From positions 1 through 25,289 of IMG/VR virus record IMGVR_UViG_2531839265_000001: 25,289 bases of DNA. One strand, written 5' to 3'. Positions 5,610 to 9,104 of this stretch are shown here, piece by piece; the stretch's first letter is position 1; each line of letters starts with the position of its first letter. Under the pieces are notes generated by a model, which saw only the letters and a program-made list of their open reading frames with translations, made no database searches and was not told the DNA's origin. The DNA comes from a virus. Lineage: Duplodnaviria > Heunggongvirae > Uroviricota > Caudoviricetes. Both the position numbers and the translations under genes were made by a program.

Positions 5610-5684
5610 TGGAACGGGTAGCGGGAATCGAACCCGCATCATCAGCTTGGAAGGCTGAGATAATAGCCATTATACGATACCCGC
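5610..5684 (-). tRNA. tRNA-Gly (anticodon UCC)
   Basis: Reverse complement GCGGGTATCGTATAATGGCTATTACCTCAGCCTTCCAAGCTGATGATGCGGGTTCGATTCCCGCTACCCGTTCCA is nearly identical to E. coli glyT, with a UCC anticodon loop and encoded CCA. Confidence 0.9.
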
Positions 5685-5687
5685 ATA

Positions 5688-5763
5688 TGGTGCCGACTAC
5701 CGGAATCGAACTGGTGACCTACTGATTACAAGTCAGTTGCTCTACCTACTGAGCTAAGTCGGC
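5688..5763 (-). tRNA. tRNA-Thr (anticodon UGU)
   Basis: Reverse complement GCCGACTTAGCTCAGTAGGTAGAGCAACTGACTTGTAATCAGTAGGTCACCAGTTCGATTCCGGTAGTCGGCACCA has a cloverleaf with anticodon loop CUUGUAA. Only 3 nt separate it from tRNA-Gly. Confidence 0.85.
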
Positions 5764-5843
5764 TCAGAACCACCACCGGCTACCAGAACCTCGCACACTC
5801 CACTTAAAGGGGGGACGCTCTTTCCTGATGAACTGGTGGCGAC

Positions 5844-5919
5844 TGGTGGCCCTTGCTGGATTTGAACCAGCGACCTGGCGATTATGAGTCGCTCGCTCTC
5901 ACCACTGAGCTAAAGGGCC
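5844..5919 (-). tRNA. tRNA with CAU anticodon, most similar to tRNA-Ile2 (ileX-like, lysidine type); elongator Met not excluded
   Basis: Reverse complement GGCCCTTTAGCTCAGTGGTGAGAGCGAGCGACTCATAATCGCCAGGTCGCTGGTTCAAATCCAGCAAGGGCCACCA closely resembles E. coli ileX. Confidence 0.8.
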
Positions 5920-6030
5920 GTGTGCAGAATAGTACTTATGCCCGTTTCGCTCTGCAATACCCCTCTCTGATTAAATCCTGCACATTGGCCTACTCATCTG
6001 AGAGGTCAATACAAAGTTACTCAGACAATA

Positions 6031-6831
6031 TTAACGCACTCTGACTGCATTAATTTCGAAGTCATCAATCTGCCTGCTATTAAGTATAACGAATGTAGAA
6101 CTCACATTACTGTACGATTTAGACAAAACCAGCCGATCATCATAGCGTGCAAGAACGTAATACCAGACATTCTCATAGTGGAGCATCTGATATTCATTCT
6201 TAAACTGGGGTTTGTACCAACCGGCAATAAGTGAAAATCCCCAGAAATAGATCATGAATCCGACCATCATACACTCAATCCAGTGATGACGAATAAAAGA
6301 CACCTCCGAAAAACATTTGACTGAAATAAGTCTTCTTCCGGACCTGACAAAAAGCGTAATTATTAAGGCAGCAATAACGCATAAAACCAGCGCATCTGGC
6401 GCAACGTGTCGATGAATTACCAAAAACTCCAGAGCGGGAGGAACAAAAAGCAGCAATATCGCCAGAAAAAGTCTGATAAAACTCAGATCCAGCACATTAT
6501 TTTTTTGCTTGATCCCCAGGAAGAAAACAACACCTGTTCCCCATCCAATCAGGAATATAACAATAACTGTAACAGCATAAAAAAGGCTTCTGGCTACATC
6601 ATCAACATCAGCCCCAACAACCCACCATGGGAAACCATAGTAAAAGGAAGTCCCCCAGCCGTAGAAGTAAGCGCTTCCCCATCCAAGACAACCCATATAA
6701 GCAACAAAAAGTGAAGAGTGCCTGAGCAGAGTACGGTCATCCATAGCAACACCATTAACATTATTAACACCATAAAAACACAACAACATGTTGCTTAACA
6801 AATAAATTCCCATGTAGTCAAGAGGCTTCAT
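6031..6831 (-). CDS. polytopic membrane protein of unknown function (266 aa) in a visibly AT-rich block
   Basis: Track ORF with multiple aromatic/Gly-rich hydrophobic segments (GWGSAYFYGWGTSFYYGFPWWVVG..., FLAILLLFVPPALEFLVI...). No family recognised. Confidence 0.6.
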   Translation of the reverse strand: MKPLDYMGIYLLSNMLLCFYGVNNVNGVAMDDRTLLRHSSLFVAYMGCLGWGSAYFYGWGTSFYYGFPWWVVGADVDDVARSLFYAVTVIVIFLIGWGTGVVFFLGIKQKNNVLDLSFIRLFLAILLLFVPPALEFLVIHRHVAPDALVLCVIAALIITLFVRSGRRLISVKCFSEVSFIRHHWIECMMVGFMIYFWGFSLIAGWYKPQFKNEYQMLHYENVWYYVLARYDDRLVLSKSYSNVSSTFVILNSRQIDDFEINAVRVR

Positions 6832-6912
6832 ATCAGGAAAAACTCATAGCACAATCGCCATCACATTTAACGTTCTGTGTCTTTTTCGGGTATAAAAACC
6901 CGTCCGGCGGCG

Positions 6913-8223
6913 CTGAGAAATCCCCAGTAATGGGCGGGTAAAAAAAGACAGGCATAGAGTTTTGTGATCTACTGATTTGTGCAACCAATTCAATGAGATC
7001 ACTTCTATGCCTGCTCGACAAGCATGTCAGAATTTTTTCCACGATGCGTTAGCACCGTTTCACAAATACCGACAAAATGCTTTGCTGGATGCCACCATCG
7101 CTCTCATCAATGGCGCATCACTGACGCTGACCAGCATCGGGCGTTATTTACCCGGCCCGGCTCAGATCAAAAATAAAATCAAACGCGTTGACCGACTGCT
7201 CGGTAATGAATCTCTTCACCGCGATATCCCACTGATTTTCGGTAATGTTATTGCCATGCTGACTGGCCAGCTATCTCTTTGTGTCATCGCCGCTGACTGG
7301 AGTGGATATCCATCTCAGAAGCATCATGTGCGCCGCGCCAGCCTGCTCTGCGATGGACGCTCGCTTCCCCTGTTAAGCTGGATAGCCCCGTCAGAAAAAC
7401 AGCAGAACTCGCAGATACAAAAAAACTTCCTGGATGCTCTTGCCGAGGCCGTAAACCCTGTGGCCAGAGTCATAATAGTTACCTATGCGGGTTTCCAGAG
7501 TGCATGGTTCCGGCATACAAGGTTACTCGGATGGGATTTTATCGGTCGCGTCAGGGGAAATACCCAGATGCGGCTGGACAGCAAAGGTTAGTGCTGGTTC
7601 AGGCGTCAGGAGTTACAGACCAGAAGCAAACCAGAATATCTGGGGACGGGTACACTTGCCCGTTCGGAATATGCCCGGTGTGATGACCATTTTATTTGCA
7701 TAAAAAGAGCCAAAAGGCCGGAAGAATCACCGCTCACGTTGCAGTATAGAGCATAAATCACAAATAAAGGACGGCCGTTCTTCGGCAAAAGAACCGTGGC
7801 TTATCTTTAGCAGTACAAATGACTTTAAACCCCGGGAAATCATGAAATTGTACAGCCGTCGCATGCAAATCGAGCAGAACTTCCGGGATGAAAAAAGCGA
7901 GCGCTTCGGGTTCGCTCTGCGTGCCAGTTACAGTCGTTCGGCAGGAAGAATGCTGGTACTGAGCCTACTGACGACGCTGAGTACAATTGTACTGTGGCTT
8001 ATTGGCTATCATGCTGAAAACAAAGGATTACATCTGAGATGTCAGGCCAACAGCATTAAAACACGGTGGGTAATCTCGTATCTGACGTTAGCGGAGAATG
8101 TCTTACGACACTCCCCGCTAATTTTAAGGCGAACAGTGCTGAGCACAATTCTTAATCATCTCGCCAAAACCTACCAGAATATGGTGTTGGTTTATTAGCG
8201 CTGATTTATGGGGCTCCCTCAGC
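6913..8223 (+). mobile_element. decayed IS10-like (IS4 family) insertion sequence, about 1.3 kb, with IS10-type terminal repeats
   Basis: Left end CTGAGAAATCCCCAGTAATGGG (6913-) and right end TATGGGGCTCCCTCAG (-8223) resemble IS10 termini. Internal ORFs align to IS10 transposase. No clean 9-bp target duplication seen. Confidence 0.7.
6977..8198 (+). pseudogene. IS10-like transposase, inactivated (one frameshift near 7590-7640 and an in-frame TAA at 7701-7703)
   Basis: Track ORFs 6977..7591, 7485..7703 and 7842..8198 together span the transposase (KNKIKRVDRLLGN...; KLYSRRMQIEQNFRDEK... versus IS10 KHNIKRIDRLLGN...; NIYSKRMQIEETFRDLK...). ORFs 2 and 3 are in the same frame, separated only by the TAA. 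Confidence 0.75.
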
Positions 8224-8264
8224 GCCGAAGCATGCCTGTATGCAATAACTGCAAAATTCAATTA

Positions 8265-9004
8265 TTATTGAGCATCACTTAAACTCGTCTTATCGAGTAT
8301 AGCTATCCTGTGACCTGCCGGGGTGACCCCAAAATAACGCCTGAAAACACTAATAAAATAAGATGTATTATTATAGCCACACTGCGCAGCGATTCTGTTG
8401 ATGGCGCAGCCATATTGATTCAATAACTTTACAGCCATTCTCATTCGCTCTGTAAGTAGCAACTCGCTGAAACAAGTATCTTCTTCTTTTAGTCTTTTTT
8501 TAACAAACTTTCACTCATGCATAACCGTGAAGACACCTCCCCCAGGGTCCAGTTTGCAGAAATGTCGGTATGAAACAACGCACCAAGCCTGCCACTAATG
8601 CTGCTGATGCACCCTGCCAGAAACGACGAACACATTATCTCTGATGAAAACAACGCCAGACACGAAAAAGAAAGCATCTCTGTCAAGTTATCCGAATGGG
8701 TCTTTTTCTCATTAATATTATCAATCAGAATGCTCATTAATTCCGGCACAGACAAACTCACGCAAAGATATCGTGGCGTTTTCCGGACTAAAATAACATC
8801 CTGCTTCTCCCCATAACTCAACAGGTAACGACATATTGCCGACTCACTGAAGCTTATTCGCCGGAAACATTCAGAAAAAGGCGATAACACCTCCAACCCG
8901 CCCCTGACAAGAAGTGCACTGCCGCTCTCCAAAGAGAGCATTTTCCCTTCGAAGAACACAACGAACGGAGAATGAATAAAAACAACAGAACAGGCTTCAC
9001 TCAT
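8265..9004 (-). CDS. AraC-family transcriptional regulator (AppY/GadX-like), split by a 1-nt frameshift in a T7/A7 run at 8485-8491
   Basis: Track ORF 8489..9004 ends ...SESLLKKD and ORF 8265..8462 holds the C-terminal HTH (...QCGYNNTSYFISVFRRYFGVTPAGH). Adding one A gives ...SESLLKKRLKEEDTCFSELLLTERMRMAVKLL, matching the AppY pattern. Confidence 0.7.
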
Positions 9005-9104
9005 ATCAACTTACCTAACATTGCTGGTCGCAAGATAAGTATATATCGCTTTACAAAAATGCAAGTTGAGAGCCCCGAATTCACAGCCACCAGCGCTTCA
9101 GGCA

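Follow-up and report, generated by a model that had tools for sequence, protein, structure and literature searches.

We analysed a 25,289-nt stretch of viral DNA (Caudoviricetes; IMG/VR record IMGVR_UViG_2531839265_000001, positions 1 to 25,289), referred to here in its entirety as the window, and focused on the DNA that separates the gene for the late antiterminator Q from the lysis genes. A lambdoid prophage, the greater part of which lies in the window, extends here from terminase genes on the left to xis/int at about 23.6–24.9 kb, and its late genes lie on the minus strand. We conclude, with a probability of roughly 0.8, that the Q-to-lysis region is a 'moron' slot, the place at which the late operon of this lambdoid prophage, with its Q82-type Q, accommodates accessory genes. 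A preliminary description of this DNA had read the region as a cargo island inserted between the late promoter/terminator and the lysis cassette, and had listed in it an AraC-family regulator, an IS10-like insertion sequence (IS), a membrane protein gene and three tRNAs. These elements are all present close to where it had placed them, each far beyond chance, and all of the cargo except the IS, which alone is on the plus strand, lies in late-transcript orientation. The arrangement is real but ordinary, a recurrent accessory-gene slot and not a special island, and its cargo is a new combination of described modules.

The slot and its boundaries

The Q-proximal side of the region carries the following elements.

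9200–9895, minus strand: gene for late antiterminator Q of the Q82-like family (Pfam PF06323, Phage_antiter_Q, 297 bits; phrog_304, 'anti-termination protein Q-like', E 1.7e-105)
9216–9188, minus strand: PR'-like late promoter TTGCAA-17-TATATT, found by a consensus scan, with a predicted start near 9181
9137–9098, minus strand: tR' intrinsic terminator, a perfect 20-bp stem with flanking A and T runs (−38.7 kcal/mol, z = −8.0)

The PR' hexamers and the first ~50 nt transcribed are conserved in phage 434, in Shiga toxin (Stx) prophages of the Stx2k and Stx2d types and in the related E. coli prophage M19. A terminator stands at the same relative position in 434, where it is annotated, in Stx2k (L008) and Stx2d prophages and in M19 (L009), with a different stem sequence in each; the 434 record places its annotated hairpin after a 'Q82-like' Q. 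By these alignments, PR' and tR' are genuine and conserved in position. The segment 9078–9174 also matches the enterobacterial small RNA STnc370 on both strands, at 33 bits, below the Rfam threshold of 54.

From tR' to the start of the holin gene at 4859 we measured 4.24 kb, in agreement with the ~4.2 kb first estimated. M19 has the same Q and lysis genes in the order Q, PR', tR', tRNA-Ile, tRNA-Gly, spacer and holin, without cargo. Homology between the window and M19 covers 3827–5920 (94.5% identity) and 9144–11394 (91.5%), which sets the insertion boundaries, as breakpoints against M19, at 5920 and 9144. The DNA that the window has in addition is 5921–9143 (~3.2 kb), where M19 has 153 bp, and the absence of this tR'-to-tRNA segment from M19 bears out the earlier view that the gap DNA is accessory. 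The same view had counted the tRNAs as cargo, and here it has to be corrected: because M19 homology runs through 3827–5920, the tRNA cluster and the 750-bp spacer behind it are phage backbone common to both prophages. The cargo also stands out in composition: its two modules have G+C contents of 0.426 and 0.410, where the mean is 0.484 (standard deviation 0.034), and fall in the lowest 5% and the lowest 0.5% of 900-nt control windows taken elsewhere in the window. Both modules are AT-rich.

In other prophages with this backbone the slot is occupied by different genes: IraM, TerB and DUF3927 in SK6988, nmpC broken by IS5 in DLP12, and stx2 in STEC409. In Lambda_2G7a, Q is followed by Blc, YbgA and an AraC-like gene and then by the holin. 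The position is, as had been pointed out, the one at which Stx2 prophages carry stx. The preliminary description had set beforehand, as a finding that would speak against it, the occurrence of the same genes at the same place in intact phages; this has come true in part, as the families do occupy the slot of the isolated phages 434 and Lambda_2G7a, which makes the slot ordinary without making the genes core phage genes.

Related E. coli prophages are ~92% identical to the window in a mosaic pattern, and a search of 5,426 complete E. coli genomes gave not one with coverage of 80% or above for window positions 4400–10000. The exact cargo combination was found in one other contig (L001, 99.8% identical) and in none of the 5,426 complete genomes.

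Two modules and the insertion sequence between them

The AraC module (~8223–9096) is 82–84% identical to DNA of the prophages L011, L012 and L015. It lies between Q and the holin in L011 and L012; the L015 and L016 contigs end ~1 kb after the AraC gene, and the Q side alone is visible in them. The Q genes beside the module in those relatives belong to two other families, PF06530 and PF03589, and the module starts directly after a terminator in each relative. The membrane-protein module (6016–6901) has its counterpart, at 81% identity, in the Stx2k prophage of STEC409, where the order is tR', membrane-protein gene, a small open reading frame (ORF), an AraC-like gene, tRNA-Ile, two tRNA-Arg and stx2AB. 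Genes of the membrane-protein family are also the first after Q and its terminator in phage 434, and the first after tR' in Stx2d and Stx2k prophages. By these alignments the cargo consists of two independent modules with a mosaic history.

Between the two modules lies an IS, flanked on either side by part of a terminator.

6908–8227, plus strand: dead IS10-like (IS4-family) IS with 29-nt terminal inverted repeats at 6908–6936 and 8199–8227
6887–6907, minus strand: remainder of a tR'-type terminator beside the IS, consisting of its 3' arm and T-run
8228–8243, minus strand: terminator of the regulator gene, truncated by the IS to its 5' arm and TTCG loop, with GGCATGC-TTCG-GCG left before the IS end

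Annotated IS4-family elements match the IS at 94.8% identity, and its ends, as judged against two independent copies, lie at ~6908/6910 and 8225/8227. Its transposase is ~84% identical to an intact 400-residue IS4-family transposase, and both transposase fragments give weak DDE_Tnp_1 matches. The defects are an in-frame stop at residue 195 and an Asp-to-Tyr change that turns VTDAGF into VTYAGF, at a residue that presumably corresponds to the second catalytic Asp of IS10. Since both defects are common to the window and to the 99.8%-identical L001, the decay of the transposase is real, and the designation of the element as a decayed IS10-like one holds. It resembles IS10 in its length of ~1.3 kb, in its termini (CTGAG..ATCCCC) and in having a single DDE transposase of ~400 residues, and is unlike IS10 in that the transposase is inactivated and a 9-bp target duplication was not found. 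Apart from the terminal motif, its ends and the start of its transposase gene presumably differ from those of IS10. RNA-OUT was not detected by Rfam.

No target-site duplication was seen in any of three end registers tried (6908/8227, 6910/8225 and 6913/8222). In the sense of the late strand, the IS is followed by CGGGTTTTTAT, which has its homologue in the Stx2k prophage L008, in the 3' half of the tR' lying ahead of the membrane-protein gene there. On the other side, the terminator homologous to the truncated one of the regulator gene is complete in L011 and L013, where it forms a 7-bp hairpin followed by six T. The IS thus lies between the halves of two different terminators. Because a target duplication is lacking and the flanks are halves of two different terminators, the IS probably made the junction, and with moderate confidence we attribute the joining of the modules to a rearrangement that it mediated.

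An intact copy of the same IS occurs in genomes of extraintestinal pathogenic E. coli (L018, E. coli tyrT-narI region), where it sits within a UUCG-loop terminator and has a near-perfect 9-bp duplication, GCTTCGGCG and GCTCCGGCG. The upstream flank of the window IS is GCTTCGGCG, identical to that of the L018 copy. A preference of the IS for terminator hairpins is suggested.

The preliminary description had treated the region as a single inserted island, that is, as a genomic island that arrived en bloc between tR' and the holin. One contiguous 3.2-kb segment is indeed extra relative to M19, and the contig that shares the cargo shows the same arrangement. In other phages, however, the two modules are separate, with a tR'-type terminator immediately ahead of each, the segment has neither flanking repeats nor an integrase, and the IS that joins the modules has the incomplete terminators and the missing duplication described above; the tRNAs included in the proposed island are backbone. 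We therefore do not regard the region as one island, and an en bloc insertion seems to us quite improbable.

The cargo genes

The accessory-slot reading leaves two genes as the cargo proper.

9004–8265, minus strand: gene for a YdeO/AppY/Rns-like AraC-family regulator, present as two ORFs in the sequence as given (9004–8489 and 8462–8265)
6744–6031, minus strand: gene for an STM1630/TfpB-family membrane protein of 237 residues (G+C 0.41; ORF open back to 6831)

The C-terminal part of the regulator contains a double helix-turn-helix (Pfam HTH_18, 43 bits; HTH_AraC, 42.5 bits). Its frame is broken at an A7 run (8495–8501), and the addition of one A yields a regulator of 246 residues that is 100% identical to the intact ORF of L001. 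The repaired protein belongs to phrog_1450 and matches, in the PDB, the GadX DNA-binding domain (E 2e-24) and Rns, the latter over residues 12–230. Residues 1–230 align to positions 1–228 of the 253 positions of the NCBIfam YdeO model; because the score of 135 bits lies below the trusted cutoff of 348, the regulator is not a YdeO orthologue. Direct sequence comparison, which took in K-12 YdeO, AppY and YbcM, gave 35% identity to K-12 YdeO (229 residues) and 30% to AppY of DLP12, and the regulator is 41% identical to that of the Stx2k/Stx2d prophages. PADLOC returned no match for the regulator, leaving an anti-phage defence role unsupported.

Prophage-borne regulators such as AppY, PsrA/B and PatE are activators of gadE and hdeA and also influence type III secretion (PMC10057817, PMC10877973). 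By analogy, the function of the window regulator is most likely of the AppY/PsrA/B/PatE kind, and homology would have it act in the lysogen on H-NS-silenced host genes, for example those of the acid-resistance regulon. If it is intact, the lysogen gains a YdeO/AppY-type regulator, a candidate lysogenic-conversion function of a class known to rewire acid resistance and virulence regulons.

Whether the regulator is intact turns on the nature of the break. All three indels that separate the window from L001 (3/3) are 1-nt contractions of homopolymers in the window: at 8502 A8 has become A7, at 7707 T6 has become T5, and at 7694 A5 has become A4. Backbone frames also break at shortened A/T runs, in holin 2 at 4408 (A7 in three relatives), in DUF968 at 10645 and in xis/int at ~23839, where the shortened run has fused xis to int; one to three independent relatives were available for these backbone comparisons. 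The break in the DnaT-like gene at 17835 is instead an extra base in the window beside a T run. No nonsense substitutions were seen in backbone genes. The sequence pattern suggests homopolymer under-calling in the assembly rather than prophage decay. As the A8-to-A7 change is one of many homopolymer contractions in this assembly, the frameshift of the regulator is most likely a sequencing artefact and the gene most likely intact in reality. Of the 'frameshifted AraC-family regulator' first described, the broken frame in the given sequence stands, but the break itself is probably an assembly error. The frameshifts of the holin and xis/int in the assembly are likewise not to be taken as prophage decay. 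Further single-base length differences at A/T runs occur at ~20366, 5228 and 5272, and contractions make up most of all these differences.

These observations bear on the alternative that the prophage is degrading and that the region, with a regulator turned pseudogene and a dead IS, is a decayed remnant without function. The broken AraC frame, the stop codon and lost catalytic Asp of the transposase, and the frameshifted appearance of holin 2, DUF968, the DnaT-like gene and xis/int are what such a remnant would offer. Yet three of the backbone breaks, the AraC break and both indels of the IS are 1-nt contractions of A/T runs, typical of sequencing error (the DnaT-like gene being the exception noted above), backbone nonsense substitutions were not seen, and the 246-residue regulator exists intact in L001 and P0104. 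We consider decay of the region unlikely.

For the membrane-protein gene, which had been described as AT-rich, homologues start at a Met that matches position 6744. The protein has a conserved N-terminal GWGSAYFYGWG..YYGFPWW motif, four hydrophobic helices and a short beta-rich C-terminus. It belongs to phrog_1521 (E 1e-82); the precomputed Pfam match on the 100%-identical protein P0001 and on all 103 matches is PF27470, 'TfpB', and the homologue in the Stx2d prophage is annotated as 'STM1630 family protein' by the Prokaryotic Genome Annotation Pipeline (PGAP). In the literature searched, 'TfpB' occurred only in unrelated senses. The allele in the window is divergent: two near-identical metagenome copies aside, no E. 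coli protein found exceeds 93% identity to it; it is 57% identical to the product of the gene directly after Q in phage 434 and 46% identical to a Salmonella member (P0066), and homologues occur in Enterobacteriaceae and Pasteurellaceae. The Salmonella gene STM1630 was chosen for study from intra-macrophage RNA-seq, and its deletion caused no macrophage replication defect (bioRxiv 10.1101/689075). For this protein too PADLOC gave no match, and a role in anti-phage defence is unsupported.

Members of the family are often found next to horizontally acquired virulence genes, at several loci (L002–L007, L022/L023, L031, L041–L045 and L046), as the one phage-like gene beside them. The gene adjoins eltAB on plasmids of enterotoxigenic E. 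coli (ETEC; L002–L007), an sseJ-like gene in Salmonella arizonae and diarizonae, cdtABC in Glaesserella parasuis, lpxR in Citrobacter, and an E. coli gene pair next to Bor that we read as iroB/iroC from Pfam matches. Q remnants stand ahead of it in E. albertii and another Escherichia, and Q or Q remnants do so at several Escherichia loci (L019–L021). At the ETEC eltAB loci there is no PR'/tR' remnant, and homology is restricted to the membrane-protein ORF and ~70 bp upstream of it; we therefore rejected the idea of phage remnants beside eltAB on these plasmids. Shared residence in the phage cargo slot, and not shared function, is the economical explanation of the virulence-gene neighbours. A speculative and improbable alternative is that the protein is more than a passenger and serves to handle neighbouring secreted cargo at the membrane or to release it, or else remodels the envelope late in phage development. 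The recurrence of the family beside toxin and effector genes is a lead for its study.

A further alternative is that the region holds the remains of a toxin-converting locus, of the Stx type or the heat-labile toxin (LT) type, whose toxin genes were lost through the IS. The gene order resembles that of Stx2k/Stx2d prophages, with an identical tRNA-Ile, the membrane-protein family flanks eltAB as just described, and an IS without target duplication is compatible with an adjacent deletion. We found, however, no toxin gene in the region and no stx or elt remnant anywhere in the window, whether among its ORFs or by alignment with the Stx2k, LT-IIb and ETEC loci, in which homology is confined to Q, the tRNAs, the lysis genes and the membrane-protein gene. 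Moreover, the toxin of Stx2 prophages lies downstream of the tRNAs, where the window has the intact spacer of the toxin-free M19, and the regulator is just 41% identical to its Stx2k counterpart, with the gene order reversed. A lost toxin locus is very improbable on this evidence.

Backbone, late transcription and known systems

Downstream of the cargo, on the late strand, the accessory slot ends in the tRNAs, the spacer and the lysis genes.

5844–5919, minus strand: tRNA with anticodon CAU (ARAGORN; Rfam, 72.5 bits)
5688–5763, minus strand: tRNA-Thr (UGU) (ARAGORN and Rfam), backbone common to M19 and the SerU-LTIIb phage
5610–5684, minus strand: tRNA-Gly (UCC) (ARAGORN and Rfam), annotated at the same position in M19
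4860–5609, minus strand: non-coding leader/spacer of 750 bp, 94% identical to M19
4467–4859, minus strand: holin, the first lysis gene (Pfam match and phrog match), with its start codon at 4859
4203–4477, minus strand: second holin, frame broken at 4408 (tblastn against SK6988 proteins)
3826–4200, minus strand: M15 endolysin, after the second holin

The three tRNAs score 61–74 bits in Rfam and are the only families over threshold; STnc370, STnc100 (in the spacer) and several miRNA-precursor models stay below it. Three tRNAs had been described, and three are present, but the one with the CAT anticodon is most likely not a tRNA-Met: it is identical at 76 of 76 positions to the PGAP-annotated tRNA-Ile of STEC409 and CNREC_004-43 (Stx2k and Stx2d prophages), and by this match it is probably an AUA-reading, lysidine-type tRNA-Ile2. 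We considered whether the tRNA supply matches the demand of the cargo and rejected this, as the frequencies of AUA, ACA and GGA are not clearly higher than in backbone genes. Promoter-like sites lie upstream of tRNA-Ile both in the window (5920–5965, TTGCAG-17-TACTAT) and in M19 (L009 3030–3075, TTGCTA-17-TATTAT), and the DNA directly upstream of tRNA-Ile differs between the two. A tRNA-cluster promoter has been reported for an Stx2a phage (PMC7547250).

Matches in the lysis region are to Pfam Phage_holin_8 and Phage_holin_3_7 and to phrog_198 and phrog_465. The preliminary description had named a late promoter immediately upstream of the holin as something that would speak against it, and the corresponding alternative is that the lysis genes have their own late promoter there and that the late operon does not include the cargo. 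In length, the 750-bp spacer could accommodate one. The scan nevertheless found no promoter-like site on the minus strand of 5609–4860, and instead three terminator-like hairpins (5253–5234, 4942–4927 and 4900–4885), the last of which ends 25 nt before the ribosome-binding site of the holin gene. In addition, the same holin-proximal sequence directly follows cargo in L011–L013. A separate lysis promoter is hence highly unlikely.

The spacer also contains a ~40-bp near-perfect hairpin (5400–5485, minus strand; folding z = −5.3). Among 5 homologues most changes keep its pairing (G-U to A-U, C-G to U-G and one A-U to G-C), and owing to its G-U pairs it is specific to the late strand. A small RNA or a site of RNase III processing are possible roles. 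The segment from the tRNA through spacer and hairpin to the holin start occurs twice in tandem in the SerU-LTIIb phage (L010; 6700–7100 and 8600–9005) and once in the window.

Elsewhere in the window, RusA (10245–9886, minus strand) precedes Q. The early region carries a Doc/Fic-family toxin gene (12143–12637, minus strand), an HNH endonuclease gene (14336–14791, minus strand) and a DicB homologue (20424–20765, plus strand), which are ordinary content for a Rac- or Qin-like prophage.

The expected behaviour of the slot follows from the Q biology of lambdoid phages (PMC7547250). In the lysogen, RNA polymerase would start at PR' next to Q and stop at tR' after ~80 nt. After induction, Q would make the polymerase resistant to terminators and let it continue for 4.2 kb to the holin, across the cargo and tRNAs and past three or more additional terminators; because the Q-modified polymerase is expected to read through to the holin, everything on the late strand, the cargo included, would be co-expressed late. 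By analogy with these phages, expression of the lysis genes should depend on Q-modified polymerase from PR'. The dead IS would have created the junction between the regulator module and the membrane-protein module.

Several points weigh against this account. The given sequence shows the regulator with a frameshift, and its 35% identity to YdeO is too low to predict its targets. Its candidate promoter, TTGCAT-15-TATACT, is weak and was not reported by the scan; neither was that of the membrane-protein gene, which has a conserved TTGACT and a poor −10. Two AlphaFold models for the STM1630/TfpB-family protein are poor, with pLDDT values of 58 and 60 (18 and 46 aligned sequences). Finally, a target duplication at the IS could conceivably have existed and decayed.

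The regulator can be compared with AppY (DLP12) and with PsrA, PsrB and PatE (O157 prophages), which are likewise prophage-borne, AT-rich and ~250 residues long with a C-terminal double helix-turn-helix. The likeness to PsrA, PsrB and PatE is by description, and that to YdeO, AppY and Rns by full-length alignment. AppY, however, is encoded at the prophage end, whereas the window regulator lies in the Q-to-lysis slot. The PR'-tR' layout, a constitutive late promoter followed by a strong terminator, is that of StxS and lambda 6S RNA and leads us to expect a short RNA in the lysogen (PMC7547250). Such an RNA would be an analogue of StxS and lambda 6S RNA in layout, although StxS is 258 nt long and the RNA predicted here ~80 nt.

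The locus offers a worked example of how the Q-to-lysis slot is assembled, from terminator-bounded modules probably joined by an IS in terminator hairpins. As a whole it conforms to the plan of the Stx phages 933W, Sp5 and P27, of DLP12 and of 434, in which accessory genes and tRNAs on the late strand come between Q-PR'-tR' and the lysis cassette, and it shares with DLP12 (quuD-nmpC::IS5-essD) an IS-interrupted cargo in the slot. Unlike these known occupants it has no toxin, porin or esterase, and its cargo is a regulator and a membrane protein.

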